DNA of 64,000 nucleotides from Escherichia phage vB-Eco-KMB23 (OR525702.1), one strand, 5' to 3'; positions 24,082 through 33,859 are shown, counted from the first letter of the stretch. The notes: a model not told the origin generated them from the letters alone. Translations and numbers: made by a program.

Positions 24082-24135
24082 TCCTCATGTTATGTCAGTA
24101 AGACTACTATAACACAACACGAGGGACTTGTAAAC
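24082..24135 (-). promoter_or_regulatory. early sigma70-type promoter cassette, copy A (identical to 39407..39460)
   Basis: Minus strand reads GTTTAC, 17 nt, TTATAGT with upstream TG, then SD GAGGA and ATG of the 96-aa ORF. Confidence 0.6.
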
Positions 24136-26192
24136 TACATTTTGAACTTTTTAGACATTCCGTTGATGTTAACCAAAGAAGCTAAGATTTGAGAAACTTC
24201 GTTTTCCTCTTCTTTTGATTCTTCTACAAGGAATTGATTAAATCCAGTCATTGGACGAACTTCACCAGTTTCCATTAAATGGTCGCCATCATATACTGAT
24301 TCTTCTAATTGTTCAGAAGGAGGAACGATTGTGCCTTCGATTAAATACTTGTTATAAGCAGTTTCTTTCATCATGTACGTGCTCACTTTATTAATCTTCA
24401 GCAAAATTCCACGCGGTAAAATAACTTCAGCTTCTGATGGAAATCCTGATAAATGACCTGGAACGATAACTTTGATTCGCTCAGCCCCTTTAATTACCAT
24501 ACCTACGCTAGTTTCAGCATCTTCATTAGCATATGCGGAATGACTACCCATATGCATTAAATCTTCAGCATCAACTGAACCTTCTCCTTCACCAGAAAAT
24601 ACTGCACTGGAATCATCTAAAGCCATATAGTTTTTACCATACTCACCGAAGATATTTGGTTTAAGCGATGTTGATACGAAGTTCTTGAAATAGAACATTT
24701 TATTTTCAATATTATGGCGTAAAGTTTTAAAAGTAACTTCTTGTCCACGATAAAGCGTAGTTCCTGGAGGAAGAACTGATCCTTTGGCGAATGCAGAATC
24801 CAGCGTCTCGATGTGTTTAATAGCTCGTTCCATGTATTCTTCACGAGTAGAATCTGGTTTACCCAAGAGGAACGAGTTCATTTCAACATATGAATCTGCA
24901 CAATAATCTTCAATTACATCGGACTCAGCCTGAGTTAATCCTTTTGGGGGTACTTCAGTACTTGCATATTCATACGCTTGAGAAGCAGACTCATTAATCA
25001 ATTTATAAATGCCATTCATGACAAATTGAATAATAGCTACCTTTTCATCTGGCGTGGCTTTAGAACCTTTAACTAAATCATTGACAATTTTCTTAATAAC
25101 ATCAAAGCTATTAGAAATATTAATGTCAGCAAGATCGCTCAAAATTTTATCGGTTTTATAATCAAAGAATTCTTTATTCTTTAAATATTCCTGAGAACCT
25201 TGATATGTTATATCGCTCTGTAATTTAATAGATGGATCACGTAAACGCGCATGGGCCAATGCAATATGATTTCGGAAGCTTTCTAGTTCATAATCGTTAG
25301 ATTTAAAACGAGAAGCACTCCTCATACCACCGATAGCTCCTTTGCTGAAGTTTGAACCAATCTGAATAACGCCAGAGTTCATTGGTCCTTCTGCTTTATA
25401 TACCGGAACTTTAGATTCAAACTCTTGATATTTCTTAGCGGCGAAGCTATCACCCTGAAGTGAAGCATCAACAGTAGAATATTGAGCTTGTGCTGCTAAT
25501 CGACGACTAATTTTAGTTTTCTGAATAACAGCTTGATCCGTGCGCTTATCATTTTCTAAAGCAATAGAAGCAGCAACAGCAACAGCTTTAGGAACAGCAT
25601 TACCTGTTTTAACATCTACATAAACATCACCAACCTTTGATTCAACTTTTGTGAATAACTCAGTTGAAATAGGAGGTACACCTGGAATGTCTTCTAAATT
25701 GGCATTTTTACGGTAAACCATAATATATGCATACTTTTTATCATAATCCCAGATTTCCTTTAAAAGAACATATCGACCTGCTCCTTTAGTACGTACTAAA
25801 CGGTCAGCAATAACTTGCATTTGACGAGCAGCGCCATTTGTTTTACTTTTTAGTACGCGGAATAGGCATGCGTCAATTTTATACTGTTTCATTGTTTGAA
25901 GAGCAGTATCAAAAACCGCATTAATGACACCAATTGGATTTCCACCCAAGTTTTTAAGTTTAACTAATGATAGTTTCTCATTAACACCTATCATTACGAT
26001 ATGCATCATTTTATCGCCTGGCTTAACGTTTTTATTTGTATCACCGCCAGAGGTGTATGTACAAAATCTAAATCCAGGAAGCACGCTTTCTTCACCAGCT
26101 TGAATAGCAAAAATTTGAGGTATTTTATGCTTAGGATTTAAGTTAACAACCGGCGCCGAAGCGCCGTCAAATAATTCTGTAATAAGTTCCAT
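24135..26192 (-). CDS. Alt-family ADP-ribosyltransferase paralog
   Basis: 685 aa; N-terminus MELITELFD shared with Alt; C-terminal YRG, VSTS and EAEVILPRG motifs (R-S-E ART signature). Confidence 0.8.
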   Translation of the reverse strand: MELITELFDGASAPVVNLNPKHKIPQIFAIQAGEESVLPGFRFCTYTSGGDTNKNVKPGDKMMHIVMIGVNEKLSLVKLKNLGGNPIGVINAVFDTALQTMKQYKIDACLFRVLKSKTNGAARQMQVIADRLVRTKGAGRYVLLKEIWDYDKKYAYIMVYRKNANLEDIPGVPPISTELFTKVESKVGDVYVDVKTGNAVPKAVAVAASIALENDKRTDQAVIQKTKISRRLAAQAQYSTVDASLQGDSFAAKKYQEFESKVPVYKAEGPMNSGVIQIGSNFSKGAIGGMRSASRFKSNDYELESFRNHIALAHARLRDPSIKLQSDITYQGSQEYLKNKEFFDYKTDKILSDLADINISNSFDVIKKIVNDLVKGSKATPDEKVAIIQFVMNGIYKLINESASQAYEYASTEVPPKGLTQAESDVIEDYCADSYVEMNSFLLGKPDSTREEYMERAIKHIETLDSAFAKGSVLPPGTTLYRGQEVTFKTLRHNIENKMFYFKNFVSTSLKPNIFGEYGKNYMALDDSSAVFSGEGEGSVDAEDLMHMGSHSAYANEDAETSVGMVIKGAERIKVIVPGHLSGFPSEAEVILPRGILLKINKVSTYMMKETAYNKYLIEGTIVPPSEQLEESVYDGDHLMETGEVRPMTGFNQFLVEESKEEENEVSQILASLVNINGMSKKFKM

Positions 26193-26195
26193 GAT

Positions 26196-28289
26196 TTATC
26201 CTTGAACGAACTTGTAAGGCATGTTTGTAATATCTATGCAAGACGCAATAATTCCAAGAGATGATTCTACTTTTTGTTTAACATTTGATGAAACAAATGA
26301 TGCAAAATCAACTCTGTCTTCTATTTCAATATCACCTGTCATTGCAACTACTTCACCAGTTTCCATTAGACGATCACCGTCATAAATTACTGATTCGGTG
26401 AGTTCTTCCGTAGTCATAACTTCAGCTTGAATGAGTTTTGTATTATTAGATGTTGTTCCGTCATTATTAGAAGCATCAGTTATTTTATTAACTTTGACCA
26501 TCAATCCGCGTGGTAGAATAACTTCAGCTTCTGTTGCTATTCCGAGACTTCCTGGATATACAACATTAACTTTATGAGCTCCATCAATTGCCCATCCTAT
26601 TTGAACTTTAACGTATTCAGGATTTTCTTTATACGCTCTTATTTCGTTTGGATTAATAGTTATTCCTTCTTCATTTTTATCAACTGTCAATTCATTACGA
26701 GCTTCTGGTTCTAAAAGACCAATACCAGCATGTGTAATTCCAAAACGTCCAAAAATGATAGGAGTTAAAGAAGTAGATACAAAATTTCTGAAATAGAATA
26801 CTTTATTTTTAACTAGTGCTTCGTATATAGGAGCAGTCATACTTTGAGCACGATAAACTGTAATGCCTTCTGGTATACGGTCACCATTTTCAAAAGCTGA
26901 ATCTAAGTTATTTATAGCAGATTCAATTTCTTTTTCACTCATTACATCATATCGTTCTGGATTGTAGCGTCCTAAAAGAAGATTATTGATGTCAGTATAT
27001 CCTGAACCACAATACTCTCTAATACCACGCTTTTGTGATGGAGTATATTTAGAACCATCACGAGCAATAGTAATATCAATCATTGGACCTGCACCAATTC
27101 CAGAAAAGCTATAAATCATTCGTTTGAGGAATTTAGTTTTTGCTGCGTTCCAGGAATTTTTAGTTATTTCTTCCCAGACTTCATCTGACTGCCCTTTACG
27201 AGTTTTATTATGTTTATCAAGCCAATTATCTTTATATTCTTCAAAGAATTGATTAACAGCTGCTGCGTATTTCTCTAAACATTTTATTGAAGTAGTTGGT
27301 TCATTTTTAATCGCATTAAGAATTACATCTTTAATTTTTTCAGAAACTTCATTAACCTCACTTTTTGAAAAGAATTTATAGTCATAATGAAGTTCATCTG
27401 CAGTTCCTTCAGCAATAATTTTTGCTGCTTTAGTTTTAGAAGCCAATGAATTAATTCCAAGTTTCATTTCTTCTGCTTCGGGAATTAAAGGAGCGGTAGC
27501 AGGTTTATTGAAATTAGCTGCGGTAGATTCATACTTCTGGAATAATTCACTTTCAAATCTAGAAGATTCTAATGATTGACTTTGTGCAATTGCTCTACGG
27601 GAAATTTTAACTTTAACGATTACAGCTTGGTCAGAACGTTTATCATTTTCTTGCGCAATAGATGCAGCAATTGCCTCATTTTTAGTTACTTGAGCTCCAG
27701 TATCTTTATTGATATAAACATCACCGACCTTCGATTCAACTTTAGTAAAGAGCTCGGTACTAATTTCCGGAACTCCTGGAATGTCTTCTAGTGATACATT
27801 TTTGCGATGTATAAGAATATATGCATACTTTTTATCGTAATCCCAGAGTTCCTTAAGAAGGACGTATCTGCCACCTGAACGACTGCGGATAAGTCTATCA
27901 GCAATAAGTTGAATTTGACGAGCTTGACCAGCAGTTTTAGACTTAAGAATACGGAGCATACAGGCATCAATTTTATACTGACGCATCGTCTGCATCGCAA
28001 CAGTAAAAACTGAATTGATGTAATTAATTGGGCTTGGACCGAGACCTTTTAATTTAGCAATTGAACCTTTAGCAGTTAATGTAAAAGGAACAATATGCAT
28101 CATTTTATCGCCCATCTTTAAATCGCGATTAGTATCACCTCCAGATGTATAGGTACATAAACGAAAGCCTGGTTGTTCAATTGCGTCATCAACATGAACT
28201 GAAAAAATTTGTGGTATTTTCTTCTTTGGATTTAAGTTTGTAATCGGAAGAGTAGTATCTTCGTCAAATAATTCTGTAATGAGTTCCAT
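26196..28289 (-). CDS. alt: ADP-ribosyltransferase Alt
   Basis: About 697 aa; MELITELFDEDTTLPITNL matches T4 Alt; ART motifs present; second ATG chosen for SD spacing. Confidence 0.85.
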   Translation of the reverse strand: MELITELFDEDTTLPITNLNPKKKIPQIFSVHVDDAIEQPGFRLCTYTSGGDTNRDLKMGDKMMHIVPFTLTAKGSIAKLKGLGPSPINYINSVFTVAMQTMRQYKIDACMLRILKSKTAGQARQIQLIADRLIRSRSGGRYVLLKELWDYDKKYAYILIHRKNVSLEDIPGVPEISTELFTKVESKVGDVYINKDTGAQVTKNEAIAASIAQENDKRSDQAVIVKVKISRRAIAQSQSLESSRFESELFQKYESTAANFNKPATAPLIPEAEEMKLGINSLASKTKAAKIIAEGTADELHYDYKFFSKSEVNEVSEKIKDVILNAIKNEPTTSIKCLEKYAAAVNQFFEEYKDNWLDKHNKTRKGQSDEVWEEITKNSWNAAKTKFLKRMIYSFSGIGAGPMIDITIARDGSKYTPSQKRGIREYCGSGYTDINNLLLGRYNPERYDVMSEKEIESAINNLDSAFENGDRIPEGITVYRAQSMTAPIYEALVKNKVFYFRNFVSTSLTPIIFGRFGITHAGIGLLEPEARNELTVDKNEEGITINPNEIRAYKENPEYVKVQIGWAIDGAHKVNVVYPGSLGIATEAEVILPRGLMVKVNKITDASNNDGTTSNNTKLIQAEVMTTEELTESVIYDGDRLMETGEVVAMTGDIEIEDRVDFASFVSSNVKQKVESSLGIIASCIDITNMPYKFVQG

Positions 28290-28312
28290 CATATCCTCTC
28301 TAGTGTTTATTC

Positions 28313-28325: not shown

Positions 28326-28343
28326 AAAGGCCCGAAGGCCTTT
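28326..28343 (-). terminator. hairpin between the 62-aa ORF and alt
   Basis: AAAGGCC-cgaa-GGCCTTT. Confidence 0.55.
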
Positions 28344-28530
28344 AATAATCTATTGGTAAGAGAGTACGATATATTTCAAACTTTGGACCTTTTTCATAAG
28401 CATCAAATGTTTCTGTGAATTTATTATAAGCATATGCATCTATAAATTCAATCATAATTTGTGATACAGAAGTAGAAACATCTCCACCTTCTTTTTGAGC
28501 AACGACAATTGTTTCTAAGTAAGCTTTCAT
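28342..28530 (-). CDS. hypothetical small protein
   Basis: 62-aa ORF, ATG start overlapping gene 30 stop. Confidence 0.5.
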   Translation of the reverse strand: MKAYLETIVVAQKEGGDVSTSVSQIMIEFIDAYAYNKFTETFDAYEKGPKFEIYRTLLPIDY

Positions 28531-29990
28531 AGACCAGTTACCTCATGAAAATCACCAAATACATCCTCGAATGTATTAGCTTTAGTTTTATCTTCACGTA
28601 AACGAATCGCAATTGGAAGAAATAATTTTACATAATCGGTGCGGCCATCAGATTTTAGCCAACCGTTGCATTCGCACTCTAGAATTTTTCCAATATAATA
28701 ATTTTGGTTTTCCATAATGCGAGTACGGTCAAGTTCATGTGATTTTACACCGGCTTTATCTTTTAAGCCTGAACCAGCATTTACTTTAATTTTTCCACAC
28801 TCTGATTCAAGAATAAATCCACCTGCTTTAGTAGGGTCTTTACGGTGAGGATAAATTCCTACAATTTTTAAATCAACATCAATTACTTCTTTAAATTTAT
28901 AGAGATTTTTTGAACGAGCATTTTCCCACAATCCATCGGTATTTTTGAGAATAATACCTTCAAGACCTTGGTCAATATATTTTTTATAAATTACCTTAGC
29001 TTCATCTAGGTTATTTACTACCTGGTTTTCAATTAAAATTACTTTATCATAGCCTGATGTCATTTGTTCTAGTTTAGAAAAACGTACATCATATTTTAAA
29101 CGAAACGCCGGAAGACCATATATTTCTACTAATGGAACATAGTCCCAGACCTGAAACTTCATGCATTGTGCTTCTTTTTCAGAAATGGTTCCCTTTAAAG
29201 ATTTATTAGCGATTCCATTAGAAGTAGTACGTGATTCAGCTACTTCAGCGAATTCTTTAGCTTTACTAATTTCAGGATAAGCATCAAAAAGAAAATCTAG
29301 GCCTTCTGGTTCCTTTTCAACTTGCTCATGGTATACCAATTCGCCATCAATTAACACACCTTCTGGATGAATCTGGCGGGCTTCAGCGGTCATTTTGATT
29401 AACTCTTCTTTAAGAAGATCTAATCCTAGATATTCATTACCAGCTCGTGATAAAAGACGAACATCATCTAATTCATCACCTCTGACTTCAGCAAAGCACC
29501 GAGCTCCATCAGCTTTTAATTGGGCAAAGGCTGGAAATTTGATATTCTTATTAATGCCTTTTTCATCATAAGAACTTGCCAGCATTTGAGGTTGTTCAGG
29601 AATTAAACCTGGCCAAACTTTGTTTGCAATAGATACTGAAGCACCGCATTCAAGGTCTCGCATCATCACTCGACGCAAAACTTCAACATCATCTTTTTTA
29701 CCATCGGTGATATATCCAATTAATTCCTCAATTGCCGCATTTCCAGTCAATTTCCGAGTAGCTAACGTGAATTCAATGAAGTCAAGCATATCGGTAATAG
29801 TCAGCATCCCAAAACTCTGGGTAGCAATACCGGGTTTAGGCCATTTCTTTATATAATACTGTAACCCACGAGAATAAGTCAGACGATATACTCGTTTGAG
29901 CAATTCATTATCTTTATTCTTTTCAAGAATTGCTTGCTTCTGCTTAGTTGAACCAATAGATGCTATTTCGTTCAGAATTTTAAGAATCAT
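28527..29990 (-). CDS. 30: ATP-dependent DNA ligase
   Basis: 487 aa, matches T4 DNA ligase length and sequence from memory. Confidence 0.9.
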   Translation of the reverse strand: MILKILNEIASIGSTKQKQAILEKNKDNELLKRVYRLTYSRGLQYYIKKWPKPGIATQSFGMLTITDMLDFIEFTLATRKLTGNAAIEELIGYITDGKKDDVEVLRRVMMRDLECGASVSIANKVWPGLIPEQPQMLASSYDEKGINKNIKFPAFAQLKADGARCFAEVRGDELDDVRLLSRAGNEYLGLDLLKEELIKMTAEARQIHPEGVLIDGELVYHEQVEKEPEGLDFLFDAYPEISKAKEFAEVAESRTTSNGIANKSLKGTISEKEAQCMKFQVWDYVPLVEIYGLPAFRLKYDVRFSKLEQMTSGYDKVILIENQVVNNLDEAKVIYKKYIDQGLEGIILKNTDGLWENARSKNLYKFKEVIDVDLKIVGIYPHRKDPTKAGGFILESECGKIKVNAGSGLKDKAGVKSHELDRTRIMENQNYYIGKILECECNGWLKSDGRTDYVKLFLPIAIRLREDKTKANTFEDVFGDFHEVTGL

Positions 29991-30256
29991 TGTTCATCCT
30001 TTAGAGTTTGGTTTACAGCTCTATTATAAATCAATTCATCATTAAGCTCAGTCAAAGACCTATGGTACGTGGTTCTAACTTTATTTCCTTGCATCCAATG
30101 CTTGACGTAAATGAAACCTTGCTCTACACATTTTTTAAAAATTCGTTCGTCTTTTTGAGCTCGGAATTCTGGATTGCATCTAAAAAATTGATTTACGTGA
30201 CCGTAATCACGTGTAGTATTACCTTCATTTTCATAAATAGTGTGAACAACAAACAT
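29987..30256 (-). CDS. hypothetical protein
   Basis: 89-aa ORF, ATG start. Confidence 0.55.
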   Translation of the reverse strand: MFVVHTIYENEGNTTRDYGHVNQFFRCNPEFRAQKDERIFKKCVEQGFIYVKHWMQGNKVRTTYHRSLTELNDELIYNRAVNQTLKDEQ

Positions 30257-31092
30257 TAGAATGCTCCTTGGAAAATATTATCACCACTAGTAGGTCTATT
30301 ATACAAATACTCTATACCACCGGGTTTAATATAGTTCCATGTCTGAAACGGATGCGTCTGATATGGATGATATGGATTATAAGGATTAAATCCAGGAGTT
30401 CTCCAGGTAGTGTTCCAACGAAAAGAATCATTTTTAATCATCTTTTCAATTACATCTTTTATAGCTTTTTCACTATCAAAACTTTCTTTATTTTCCTTCG
30501 GTGAAAAAAGCTTATTCTCTACATCGTTCCATGTATAAACTCGCTGAGCGGTTTTTGGAATACTGTCACGTTCCCCTCGAGCCATCCAATACACAGGAAC
30601 ACGTAATATTTCACTCGCATGATCGCAGTGGTGAGCGAGATCGTCAATATAACAAATTACGTTATATTTCTCTTTTGCCTTTTTGAACAACTCTTCTTTT
30701 GAAGAATCATGACCACACATCATTACTTCTGAGAAGGCACCAGGAAAAAGAGCATTCAAATTAAATTGACGATTCAACAGAGCGTCAATAGAATCACCCA
30801 ATGCTGTAACAGCTACAAAATTATAATCTTCTTTTAATTTGTTAATTACACACAGAGCATCTTTATATGGAGACAAGTAACGAATAAAATCTGATCGATT
30901 GTATTTTTCAATTAGCTTAACGCCAAGTTCTTCATCACAGTTAAAGAGTTTACCAGGAGAAATAAATTTCTCATCCTGGATCATTTTTAAAATATGTTCT
31001 AACGGAAGATTATATTTCTGAGCAAAATAAGGAAGGCCTGATTGCCAGCTTAAACATACTCCATCAATATCAGTTAAAATAGTAAGCTTCAT
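30256..31092 (-). CDS. HAD-superfamily hydrolase-like protein
   Basis: 278 aa; N-terminal ILTDIDGV resembles HAD motif I (DxDG). Confidence 0.6.
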   Translation of the reverse strand: MKLTILTDIDGVCLSWQSGLPYFAQKYNLPLEHILKMIQDEKFISPGKLFNCDEELGVKLIEKYNRSDFIRYLSPYKDALCVINKLKEDYNFVAVTALGDSIDALLNRQFNLNALFPGAFSEVMMCGHDSSKEELFKKAKEKYNVICYIDDLAHHCDHASEILRVPVYWMARGERDSIPKTAQRVYTWNDVENKLFSPKENKESFDSEKAIKDVIEKMIKNDSFRWNTTWRTPGFNPYNPYHPYQTHPFQTWNYIKPGGIEYLYNRPTSGDNIFQGAF

Positions 31093-31547
31093 AGAGAGTC
31101 TCTTAATAGGTTTAACACATCAATAAATTCAGCTTCGGTTAGTATTGTATCATCTTTTGTTAGACCACTAGCCATGCTGTGCTTCAAAACTTTTCCTTTC
31201 GAGGCTTGTAATGCATCACGAAAGCCCCTGTTTTGGATCGCTGCTTCAAAATATGCATTTGTGTATAATTCTTTCCACGCTGGGGAGTATCTTGAAAACG
31301 GAACTCCAAGCCAGAAGAGGGTCCCACGGTCCTGAGCTCTTGCATAAGACCTTCCAGCTTGTTGGGCGGCAAGACCGGATAACCCAAATATACGACGTTG
31401 TTGTTCAACATTTTTCACCTTGCACCCTTGGAGGAATCCTTCAAGACCTCCAAATTGAATACCATCCATAACGAAAGGCCATTGGGCGAAATTACTTAAT
31501 GCACATGATGGCCACCTAAAATTGCTTCTAATCTCTAACTCAGACAT
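31089..31547 (-). CDS. NADAR (YbiA-like) domain protein, putative ADP-ribose-processing enzyme
   Basis: LSNFAQWPFVMDGIQFGGLEGFLQGCKV resembles the NADAR core (compare E. coli YbiA FSNFAAWP..DG....EHYFQAQKF); first ATG is third codon of track ORF. Confidence 0.55.
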   Translation of the reverse strand: MSELEIRSNFRWPSCALSNFAQWPFVMDGIQFGGLEGFLQGCKVKNVEQQRRIFGLSGLAAQQAGRSYARAQDRGTLFWLGVPFSRYSPAWKELYTNAYFEAAIQNRGFRDALQASKGKVLKHSMASGLTKDDTILTEAEFIDVLNLLRDSL

Positions 31548-31746
31548 TTTCAATGCTTATAATTTCAACATCAGCCCAATGACCATAGCAAGGAAGACGA
31601 AATTCAACTGGCCAGTTAGGGTCCTTTTCTAATATAATAGACTCAACTTGTGGTTCTTCATGTTCATCAGTATATGGATTTTTATCTGTTACTTTATATG
31701 TGACCTTAATGTACTGAATTCCAAAAATCTTATTAATTATATTCAT
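31540..31746 (-). CDS. hypothetical protein
   Basis: 68-aa ORF. Confidence 0.5.
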   Translation of the reverse strand: MNIINKIFGIQYIKVTYKVTDKNPYTDEHEEPQVESIILEKDPNWPVEFRLPCYGHWADVEIISIENV

Positions 31747-31940
31747 ACTAATTCCTTTAATCCGTAGATAGGAGATAATTCATCACCCATACGAAGGTCT
31801 TCATTTCCATCTACCCAGGAAACAATATAAGCCTCTTTTATTTGAATACCACTCCATTTAAATGGAGGTAGAACCTTAGAAATTAATCCAGGTATACCAA
31901 CTCCCTTTAATTCAACAGTTTGACCTAAAAAGAATTTCAT
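31743..31940 (-). CDS. hypothetical protein
   Basis: 65-aa ORF. Confidence 0.5.
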   Translation of the reverse strand: MKFFLGQTVELKGVGIPGLISKVLPPFKWSGIQIKEAYIVSWVDGNEDLRMGDELSPIYGLKELV

Positions 31941-32227
31941 TAGAACCTCATCTGAAAACCGTGCGATTTAACATTACCGCCGCCAATATCAGAAATGTTA
32001 ATTTCACGCGCAATTGAAGGGTCAATGTCAATTTCGCGATTGAGTTTAGTGATAGCTAAAGTATCACGCCCATTTACAGTACGAAACTCTAAAGGACAAA
32101 CCACATCAACGTAGTTTTTAATCGATTCGCTAGTAGGTTGCAAATGTGCAGGAAGGTCTTTAGGCGACTTTGAGAAAACTACTTCGCAGAAGTTTTTACG
32201 GGTATCAAAATAAGTAGTCATAAACAT
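31940..32227 (-). CDS. hypothetical protein
   Basis: 95-aa ORF. Confidence 0.55.
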   Translation of the reverse strand: MFMTTYFDTRKNFCEVVFSKSPKDLPAHLQPTSESIKNYVDVVCPLEFRTVNGRDTLAITKLNREIDIDPSIAREINISDIGGGNVKSHGFQMRF

Positions 32228-32243
32228 AACATTTTCCTCAGTA

Positions 32244-32259
32244 AGGGGCCAAAGCCCCT
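32244..32259 (-). terminator. intercistronic GC hairpin
   Basis: AGGGGCC-aa-AGCCCCT. Confidence 0.5.
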
Positions 32260-32268
32260 CATTTTATT

Positions 32269-32634
32269 TTAAATATCAAATTCGTTAAGAACTACATCAA
32301 AGATTGCTTCAAGATGCTCAGGTTTAGCTCTGTTACTCAGAATATGACGAATCCAAGTTTTAACCAAAAGCTTGCGATTAGAACCATTCCAGCAAGGATG
32401 AGTCCCTAAATCACGTTGACGAAAATCATCATCCAGAGCGATTTTGAAGTTTGAACCTTCCATTGTGATTGAAACCGTGATTCCATTTTCAAATCGCATA
32501 TAAACGTAATTAGGAGTCATATACTGCTCAATTTCGCATACTGATCCATTTTGATGTTTCCAAAGGCAAATAGTATCAATAGAACCTGCAATACAATTAG
32601 AAACATATTTACGTTCAAAATTGGTGTAGTTCAT
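32269..32634 (-). CDS. hypothetical protein
   Basis: 121 aa from ATG 32634 with RBS GGAGAATAAA; track ORF begins at upstream TTG. Confidence 0.55.
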   Translation of the reverse strand: MNYTNFERKYVSNCIAGSIDTICLWKHQNGSVCEIEQYMTPNYVYMRFENGITVSITMEGSNFKIALDDDFRQRDLGTHPCWNGSNRKLLVKTWIRHILSNRAKPEHLEAIFDVVLNEFDI

Positions 32635-32659
32635 TTTATTCTCCAAGATGTTTAATTGC

Positions 32660-32699
32660 GGTACAGGTATATAATATCATATCCTGTACCAAAGTAAAC
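32660..32699 (-). promoter_or_regulatory. early promoter with embedded stem-loop (PeSL-like cassette)
   Basis: Minus strand: GTTTAC, then 8-bp inverted repeat GGTACAGG/CCTGTACC bracketing the AT-rich -10 (TATTAT). Confidence 0.55.
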
Positions 32700-32701
32700 A
32701 A

Positions 32702-33034
32702 TTATTTTACTACTTTCCAATGCTGCATGTCAAGTTTACCAACTTTTTTCATCTTCTCAATTAAGCGTTCGGCACGTTGGCGAGCTGTAACATAATACCA
32801 TTCACCTAATTCATTTTGTTCAATTTTTCCAACGATTACTGTATTCAATTCATAAATCCAACCAGTAAAGAAATTATGAACTTGAATTGTAAAGGTGAAA
32901 TCTGTTCCCATACCTTCTGTTGTTTCTACTTCAATAATATCACCTTCAACTGCCATTAAGAACCACATAGTTTCATCATATTTACCATTGAAGCATTTAG
33001 TTTTAACTGTAGCGTTCAGATTAATCGTTTTCAT
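32702..33034 (-). CDS. hypothetical protein
   Basis: 110-aa ORF, ATG with RBS AAGGAGAATAAA. Confidence 0.6.
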   Translation of the reverse strand: MKTINLNATVKTKCFNGKYDETMWFLMAVEGDIIEVETTEGMGTDFTFTIQVHNFFTGWIYELNTVIVGKIEQNELGEWYYVTARQRAERLIEKMKKVGKLDMQHWKVVK

Positions 33035-33042
33035 TTTATTCT

Positions 33043-33100
33043 CCTTTGTTTGTGTAAGATAATACTATCACAAAGGAACCGTACTGTAAACAACTTTGTG
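33043..33100 (-). promoter_or_regulatory. early promoter with inverted repeats (PeSL-like cassette)
   Basis: GTTTAC (rc of 33086-33091) enclosed by CACAAAG/CTTTGTG repeat; AT-rich -10 downstream. Confidence 0.5.
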
Positions 33101-33120
33101 CAATCTTTGGAAAATAAAAA

Positions 33121-33140
33121 AGGACTCCCGAAGGAGTCCT
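33121..33140 (-). terminator. hairpin terminator
   Basis: AGGACTCC-cgaa-GGAGTCCT. Confidence 0.65.
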
Positions 33141-33144
33141 CAAC

Positions 33145-33321
33145 TTATGCTTTCTGCTTACCAAAACGAGAAGCATCATCTCGAAGAACCGCACGTGCTC
33201 GGCGCATGATCTTCTCAACAGTTTGATTGATACGAGAGTTCGACCCACGCTTGTAACCAGCGCGTTTAGAATCACCAACTTTCTTTTCAACTGCTTTCTT
33301 TGCTTTAACTTGTTTTGCCAT
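33145..33321 (-). CDS. small basic protein
   Basis: 58 aa from ATG 33321 (MAKQVKAKK...), Lys/Arg-rich. Confidence 0.5.
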   Translation of the reverse strand: MAKQVKAKKAVEKKVGDSKRAGYKRGSNSRINQTVEKIMRRARAVLRDDASRFGKQKA

Positions 33322-33353
33322 TATAAATTCTCTTTTAAATGAAAATGCAGGAC

Positions 33354-33542
33354 TTATTGGCATTGCCTGCGCAAGCCCTCAAAGGGGTACTTAGGTTTTG
33401 AATATTTACCGACAGGATAACCATAAACCTCGTCATCATACCACCAAGACTTACACAGATAACACTTTTCTGACGCATGATAGTAACATTCAAGAGGTAC
33501 ACCATAAAACTGCCGGGGTCTTAAAACTATAATGATTCGCAA
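33354..33542 (-). CDS. hypothetical Cys-rich ORF, non-ATG start
   Basis: Track ORF begins with TTG, no SD; coding status uncertain. Confidence 0.3.
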   Translation of the reverse strand: MRIIIVLRPRQFYGVPLECYYHASEKCYLCKSWWYDDEVYGYPVGKYSKPKYPFEGLRRQCQ

Positions 33543-33610
33543 ATCATTAATCAGACAGTTCGATGGCTCCTCGATTTTAGCTCACACTAAGGCAGTGAAT
33601 CTCCAATAAA

Positions 33611-33859
33611 TTACTTCAATGTTACCACAAAGTGACGAACTGCTTTTCGTGCAGCAGAAGCCAGAGGCTTAGCATACTTAAGTTCATCTTTTTCCTGAAG
33701 CTCAGCAGCTAATGCAGTTTGAGCAGGATTCAGATGTTTGAAATAACGCAGGATTTCAAGAGCTTCGGCTTCAACATCAATAGATGCGCCATAGTTTTCG
33801 TGACCATTATTCCATGCGTTTCGTTGCAGTTCAAGAGCGTGTTGTAATTGTTTAATCAT
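33611..33859 (-). CDS. rIII: lysis inhibition accessory protein rIII
   Basis: 82 aa, matches T4 rIII. Confidence 0.85.
   Translation of the reverse strand: MIKQLQHALELQRNAWNNGHENYGASIDVEAEALEILRYFKHLNPAQTALAAELQEKDELKYAKPLASAARKAVRHFVVTLK

Follow-up and report, generated by a model that had tools for sequence, protein, structure and literature searches.

AdfN and a divergent HAD-superfamily protein encoded by the neighboring genes 30.3 and 30.2 of a T4-type phage

Introduction

Two overlapping genes lie near a pair of Alt-type ADP-ribosyltransferase genes in the window analyzed here, a 64,000-nucleotide stretch of DNA from Escherichia phage vB-Eco-KMB23 (OR525702.1), which raises the question of whether these genes form a common system for handling ADP-ribosylation. 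The original prediction, made by motif inspection, had assigned the ORF at 31089..31547 to NADAR-like proteins and the ORF at 30256..31092 to HAD-like proteins, and had proposed that they could act with the Alt genes in ADP-ribosylation processing or in counter-defense, for example against DarT-type modification of DNA. Both ORFs were found at these coordinates on the minus strand, and the motifs quoted for them were present and conserved beyond chance. Our analysis favors, with a probability of roughly 80%, a reading in which 30.3 codes for the anti-DarT protein AdfN and 30.2 for a HAD phosphomonoesterase, as two separate early-region genes that are not tied to Alt.

Genomic context

A stretch of about 1.9 kb around 30.2 and 30.3 was 98-99% identical (megablast) to hundreds of Tequatrovirus genomes, and the matching phages included Citrobacter phage PhiZZ6, Escherichia phages NR1 and teqsoen, and T4T. 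The window belongs to a T4-type phage (Tequatrovirus). Gene names 30.2 and 30.3 were taken from the matching genes in the T4T record, where the order, all on the minus strand, is alt paralogue remnants, alt, alt.1, 30 (DNA ligase), 30.1, 30.2, 30.3 and 30.4 onward; the window has the same gene order. The features discussed below are as follows.

24135..26192: second alt paralogue
26196..28292: alt
28342..28530: alt.1
28527..29990: DNA ligase (gene 30)
29987..30256: gene 30.1
30256..31092, minus strand: gene 30.2, 278 codons
30256..30492, minus strand: gene 30.2 residues 201-278 and stop, variable low-confidence C-terminal tail with a conserved GGIEYLYNRPT-type end
30493..31092, minus strand: gene 30.2 residues 1-200, predicted phosphatase domain of the HAD superfamily, with its alpha-helical C1 cap at about residues 12-89
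31060..31071, minus strand: HAD motif I at codons D8-I-D10-G11, with the nucleophilic Asp and, at +2, the general acid/base Asp, from alignment
31089..31092, minus strand: ATGA overlap of the 30.3 stop and the 30.2 start, read from the sequence
31089..31547, minus strand: gene 30.3 (adfN), full length, 152 aa, NADAR-superfamily DNA (guanine) ADP-ribosylglycohydrolase
31419..31442, minus strand: codons E36-K43 (EGFLQGCK), catalytic Glu/Lys motif of AdfN, from the family alignment and T4 mutants

The presence of two Alt-type ADP-ribosyltransferase genes nearby, noted in the original prediction, was borne out, and the two share 41% identity (E=5e-160). They are separated from 30.2 and 30.3 by alt.1, the DNA ligase gene and 30.1, and gene 30.3 lies some 2.8 kb away from the alt pair. 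Where 30.3 meets 30.2, the TGA stop of the former is overlapped by the ATG of the latter. Because 30.4 and 30.3, like most neighboring genes in this region, overlap in the same way, the ATGA is not specific to the 30.3/30.2 pair. In addition, a promoter and terminator scan of positions 29900..33700 gave 16 promoter-like sites compared to 13.8 expected, and no minus-strand site between 30.3 and 30.2 stood out.

Gene 30.3 encodes AdfN

Counted from its ATG, which is also the start annotated in T4T, the ORF at 31089..31547 has 152 codons; an in-frame TTG at 31553, two codons upstream, was reported as the start by the ORF listing. Its product, gp30.3, contains LSNFAQWPFVMDGIQFGGLEGFLQGCK. This is the motif on which the NADAR assignment had been based, and it was present as quoted except for the gap between DG and Glu, which is six residues long and not five. 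The protein matched Pfam family PF08010 (Phage_30_3) over profile positions 1-138 of 138 (E=5.3e-70, 234 bits with a cut-off of 36) and also PHROG 652, which is labelled 'unknown function'. Its sequence was the same as that encoded by Shigella phage ESh17 (100% identity) and 99% identical to T4T gp30.3 over all 152 residues, the only two differences being R107K and M125I (Arg and Met in the protein studied here, Lys and Ile in T4T), both conservative. Among 11 aligned gp30.3 sequences, with identity down to 40%, E36, G37, F38, L39, Q40 and K43 were invariant, and H123 was invariant too in the family alignment. The C-terminus (...LNLLRDSL) is intact and ends as in T4T.

Single-sequence searches of gp30.3 detected only PF08010 in Pfam, no family in NCBIfam and one chance-level match in PDB (E=0.57), and the general NADAR model PF08719 was not matched up to E=10. 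Beyond these direct searches, profiles and structure prediction were needed. PF08719 was matched weakly by three of 10 gp30.3 relatives (best E=0.0031), and the best PDB match of the family profile was E. coli YbiA (2b3w), with a marginal E=0.056. A profile-profile comparison of the gp30.3 family with YbiA by hhalign gave E=5.5e-6 and a probability of 85.7% over 98 columns that included the catalytic motif. The AlphaFold (AF2) model of gp30.3 (pLDDT 83.4, pTM 0.81), which has a helix at residues 138-151, was compared with PDB by Foldseek, and the matches were YbiA 2b3w (E=1e-4, TM 0.63), the NADAR of G. lovleyi 8bat (E=0.023) and that of P. nicotianae 8bau (E=0.15); all PDB matches beyond these three NADAR structures had E>2 and TM<0.3. 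8bat is a DarT1-associated NADAR from Geobacter lovleyi, and 8bau is a Phytophthora NADAR bound to ADP-ribose.

Function of this protein has been described for T4, in publications of 2024-2025. Purified T4 gp30.3 strips ADP-ribose from DNA guanine in vitro and is inactive on thymine- or thymidine-linked ADP-ribose, and the phage branch to which it belongs is marked by a His in the last strand, compared to Asp or Glu in other NADARs (PMC11125620). The protein was renamed AdfN, for 'anti-DarT factor NADAR' (PMC11825919). In the same study, the 3' part of 30.3 was identified as the determinant of DarTG1 resistance in crosses of T2 or T4 with RB69; the RB69 allele is inactive, with a frameshift by which the last 15 residues are lost, and plaquing of RB69 on DarTG1 cells was restored by expressed adfN(T4) (PMC11825919). 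E36A, K43A and truncated variants of adfN(T4) were impaired, deletion of adfN made T4-GT7 sensitive to DarTG1, and ADP-ribose was removed from DarT1-modified DNA by purified AdfN(T4) but not by its E36A form (PMC11825919). AdfN(T4) gave no protection to uninfected cells or to non-T-even phages; it was fully active only in T-even infection, and the authors suspect that an additional T-even protein is involved (PMC11825919).

Gene 30.3 of the window is adfN, and its product belongs to the NADAR superfamily, in the phage branch. The NADAR assignment in the original prediction thus agrees with the fold, with the hhalign match to YbiA and with the published T4 activity, and the counter-defense against DarT-type DNA ADP-ribosylation that it had suggested is the published function of AdfN. 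This role of 30.3 is therefore already in the literature and is not new. The allele examined here is not truncated and has lost none of the residues of known importance, from which we infer that it is active. In the infected cell, DarT1 of the host would attach ADP-ribose to guanine in replicating phage DNA, and AdfN would cut the N-glycosidic bond between base and ribose, by which ADP-ribose would be freed and a replicable template restored. AdfN is accordingly a stand-alone NADAR that supplies the antitoxin activity of DarG1 as an orphan, for counter-defense. As the published work on AdfN shows, a phage can reverse DNA ADP-ribosylation with its own copy of the antitoxin component of a toxin-antitoxin defense; for the phage analyzed here, presence of the gene means that it should resist DarTG1-type defense.

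Gene 30.2 encodes a divergent HAD-superfamily protein

The N-terminus of gp30.2 reads MKLTILTDIDGV and carries HAD motif I in the form hhhTD8xD10G11V, with D.DG[VI] present in 93 of 98 homologues. Motif II is T96, at the end of a FVAVTAL strand and about 80 residues from motif I; motif III is K132 and motif IV is D150-D151. In 51 gp30.2 relatives with identity down to 38%, D8, D10, G11 and K132 were invariant, and T96, D150 and D151 were conserved in at least 90% of the sequences. An Asp at the +2 position of motif I is typical of HAD enzymes of the phosphatase or mutase type and not of the dehalogenase type. The predicted structure, a Rossmann-like core that bears a C1 cap (inserted behind motif I), is confidently modeled over residues 1-190 and matches HAD enzymes only. 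Beyond residue 220 pLDDT drops to 42-60, and many relatives lack this tail or could not be aligned over it; the motif G.E[YW][LWY]..[QR]PT was found in the tails of 16 of 54 long homologues.

Sequence searches with gp30.2 itself detected no HAD family in Pfam or NCBIfam up to E=1, and the single-sequence matches were at chance level only (thiamin pyrophosphokinase, E=0.19 and 0.017; cdN 2jao, E=1.3). A profile of close relatives reached at best E=0.51 in PDB, again to cdN, and the protein matched PHROG 420, which is labelled 'unknown function'. We assembled the wider family by searching 1.84 billion cluster representatives with a profile. It comprised 1105 representatives of 50%-identity clusters at E<=1e-3, mostly single-domain proteins of about 200 aa, and its broad profile aligned over the full length with the putative deoxyribonucleotidase 3bwv (E=2.9e-6) and less significantly with mammalian cdN and mdN (E=0.07-0.4). 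When 42 family members were scanned at E<=0.1, NT5C PF06941 was matched by 17 (best E=4.2e-10), PF00702 by 15 and PF13419 by 11. The gp30.2 family is a divergent HAD branch missed by current Pfam and NCBIfam models.

Several other observations were made in this family. One of the 42 HAD relatives scanned matched PF22397 'NADAR-DarT1' (E=0.058), which we attribute to chance given the number scanned. Some distant relatives are longer (365-660 aa) and carry fusion partners; these additional parts were blank in Pfam. Our literature search found no paper that named gp30.2; a few genome annotators label its homologues 'HAD-superfamily hydrolase' or '5'(3')-deoxyribonucleotidase'.

For both genes, then, generic HMM searches, which had been proposed as a check of the original prediction, came out negative (PF08719 for gp30.3, HAD models for gp30.2), whereas structure prediction returned the NADAR fold for the former and the HAD fold for the latter. 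As the generic Pfam models missed both proteins, we base the assignments on fold and profile comparisons, to which published experiments are added for 30.3. The HAD call for 30256..31092 holds on this basis, with all four motifs present.

Judged by fold and profile comparisons, gp30.2 probably falls, as a divergent member, among the NT5C-like HAD enzymes with a C1 cap. With fair confidence, it is predicted to be an Mg2+-dependent phosphomonoesterase acting on a small molecule; judging from the nearest relatives, our best guess for the substrate would be a (deoxy)nucleoside monophosphate. In catalysis, D8 would form an aspartyl-phosphate intermediate and D10 would act as general acid/base; the phosphate would be held by K132 and T96 and the metal by D150/D151, and the helical C1 cap would close over the small substrate. 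One candidate substrate that we considered and rejected is m6-dAMP, the danger signal of the PUA-Cal-HAD defense: T2 carries 30.2 and escapes this defense only via denA mutations. The substrate, once found, would fill a gap in the T4 gene catalogue and could also explain why AdfN(T4) works only in T-even infections.

Conservation of gene order around 30.2

The proposal of a module was judged by the conservation of the linkage of 30.2 and 30.3 across related genomes. We searched 77 viral loci around gp30.2 homologues with both protein profiles and with the neighboring proteins of the window; these loci are phylogenetically non-independent, and the counts that follow are descriptive only. Gene 30.3 abuts 30.2 in 20 of the 77 loci (T-even-like genomes and some others) and lies 0.1-1.2 kb away in 16, and in the remaining loci, about half, it was not found within 5 kb. 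The DNA ligase gene shows a much more constant position: in 67 of the 77 loci it follows 30.2 on the same strand at a distance of no more than 700 nt, and this adjacency extends to distant T4-like contigs of 220-235 kb. In Citrobacter phage Merlin, about 59 kb separate 30.2, ligase and alt from the 30.3 homologue, which adjoins the tRNA cluster. The catalytic motifs of 30.2 are preserved in genomes with 30.3 at another site.

Cooperation of gp30.2 with AdfN, either as an extra T-even factor or by disposing of a phosphorylated product of ADP-ribose removal, was weighed against these data. The two genes are co-oriented and overlap by ATGA, but overlaps of this type are the rule among neighbors in the region. 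The published need of AdfN(T4) for T-even infection, and the missing T-even protein proposed to account for it (PMC11825919), would accommodate such a partner, as would the fact that RB69, which is rescued by expressed AdfN(T4), belongs to the 30.2-carrying group of phages; however, some 200 T-even genes fit the description of a missing factor equally well. Host genera of the two genes are very similar (1444 phage records for 30.2, 1510 for 30.3), which is expected of any two widely conserved T4-like genes. Furthermore, NADAR hydrolysis yields ADP-ribose, for which no phosphomonoesterase is needed, and the abutment in only 20 of the 77 loci, the separation in Merlin and the intact motifs of 30.2 in genomes that have 30.3 elsewhere argue against a joint function. 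We therefore regard cooperation as very unlikely. The more specific proposal, in which gp30.2 is what AdfN(T4) requires to be fully active in vivo, appears very doubtful. Under that proposal gp30.2 might be a physical partner, perhaps via its C-terminal GIEYL..QPT peptide, or might remove a phosphorylated inhibitor or by-product; if it were true, 30.3 and 30.2 would make up a two-enzyme anti-DarT1 unit of T-even phages.

The conserved position of 30.2 directly upstream of the ligase gene could instead be explained if gp30.2 served DNA ligase, for example as a 3'-phosphatase that cleans DNA ends or by removing AMP-related by-products of ligation. There is a parallel in T4 polynucleotide kinase, whose 3'-phosphatase domain is also a HAD enzyme. 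However, the active site of gp30.2 is covered by the C1 cap, an insertion of about 80 residues, and in HAD enzymes such a cap accompanies small-molecule and not macromolecular substrates. PseT is already encoded by the phage in this region. Since T4-like gene order is conserved generally, synteny says little about a shared function. A role in ligation thus seems very improbable.

The proximity of 30.3 to the alt genes, at about 2.8 kb, might also suggest that gp30.3 reverses protein ADP-ribosylation by phage Alt, ModA or ModB. This explanation is hard to reconcile with the activity demonstrated for the T4 protein on guanine-ADPr DNA and with its clear DarTG1 phenotype (PMC11125620, PMC11825919). 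The Merlin homologue, with its distance of about 59 kb from 30.2, ligase and alt, and the many loci (about half) in which 30.3 does not occur within 5 kb of 30.2 also speak against it, and protein de-ADP-ribosylation by any NADAR was not found in the literature consulted. We consider a role in Alt reversal extremely unlikely.

Taken together, the abutment of 30.2 and 30.3 in T-even phages suggests local gene order only and no obligate pairing. Because their adjacency is not conserved, and because the motifs of 30.2 are kept when the genes are apart, an obligate NADAR-HAD pair or a link to Alt is unsupported. No tie between the HAD phosphatase and ADP-ribose was seen at this locus. This part of the original prediction, in which 30.2, 30.3 and the Alt genes formed one ADP-ribosylation-processing module, is not supported, and 30.2 is probably independent of 30.3; the preferred reading remains that of AdfN and a HAD phosphomonoesterase encoded by separate early-region genes.

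Comparison with known systems

The closest known counterparts of gp30.2 are the 5'(3')-deoxyribonucleotidases (NT5C PF06941), represented by 2jao, 2i7d and S. epidermidis 3bwv; 2jao and 2i7d are mouse and human cdN/mdN. A C1-capped HAD fold of about 190 residues and a DxDGV motif I are common to these enzymes and gp30.2, and they were its best Foldseek matches (2jao, E=7e-8; 3bwv, TMt 0.68-0.71). However, identity to them is only 16-21%, gp30.2 itself has no PF06941 match, and its variable tail of about 80 residues is not present in NT5C enzymes. gp30.2 adds a new but unremarkable member to an enzyme superfamily that is already known.

Among NADARs, gp30.3 shares its fold with the DarG1/DarT1-associated NADAR (8bat) and with YbiA (2b3w), and the Glu/Lys catalytic motif of these proteins aligns with that of gp30.3, although sequence similarity to YbiA 2b3w is marginal (profile E=0.056). 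Chemistry on guanine-ADP-ribose has been reported alike for DarG1-type NADARs and for T4 gp30.3. Unlike DarG1, gp30.3 has no linked toxin gene, and it has His at the family-distinguishing position in the last strand, where DarG1-type NADARs have Asp or Glu; DarG1 rescues uninfected cells from DarT1, whereas T4 AdfN cannot. The known system that corresponds most directly to gene 30.3 is AdfN(T4) itself, which is the same gene at the same genome position; the copy described here retains E36, K43 and H123 as well as an intact C-terminal helix.

Gene order and the gp30.2 tail

The DNA ligase gene (gene 30) lay directly downstream of 30.2 in 67 of the 77 related loci that hold 30.2 (28527..31092, minus strand, in the window; L002-L074 among the viral loci fetched for comparison). 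Distant T4-like genomes of 220-235 kb were among the 67, and across the 77 related loci 30.2 stayed beside the ligase gene far more consistently than it stayed beside 30.3. Such a steady neighbourhood could reflect mere synteny or provide a hint of function.

A further feature of the predicted phosphatase gp30.2 is its C-terminal region:

30256..30492, minus strand: gp30.2 C-terminal tail, residues 201-278; hypervariable, with a low-confidence model

Despite the hypervariability of the remainder, a short motif at the very end of the tail is conserved: G-[TG]-G-[IVL]-E-Y-[LWY]-x-x-[QR]-P-T. This motif was present in 16 of 54 long gp30.2 homologues, whose enzyme domains were only about 50% identical, and it looks like a putative docking peptide.

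Length and internal frame of gp30.3

The 30.3 gene has 152 codons in both the window and T4T, whereas the T4 gp30.3 construct was given as residues 1-208 (Toxins 2024 paper). The profile of PHROG 652, the phage protein family matched by gp30.3, has 296 positions, and gp30.3 aligned to positions 126-272. Either some family members or the Toxins 2024 construct is longer than the 152-codon gp30.3. A further reading frame is nested in this gene:

31184..31411, minus strand: 75-codon ORF within 30.3, out of frame; open in the window

In T4, this ORF is annotated as 30.3', "internal translation in a different reading frame".

Comparison with T4 and Merlin

Two further features were set against T4:

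24135..26192, minus strand: second Alt paralogue, intact, 685 aa
66126-74557, Citrobacter phage Merlin (L080): gp30.3/AdfN homologue region

Alt (26196..28292) and the neighbouring paralogue shared 41% identity (E=5e-160). In T4, the counterpart of this copy is split into alt.-1 and alt.-2, whereas the window copy is intact; therefore, vB-Eco-KMB23 may carry two Alt-type ADP-ribosyltransferases. In Merlin, a tRNA cluster is followed just downstream by an operon whose last gene is the gp30.3/AdfN homologue, with an annotated terminator 3′ of it, a genomic setting unlike that in T4.
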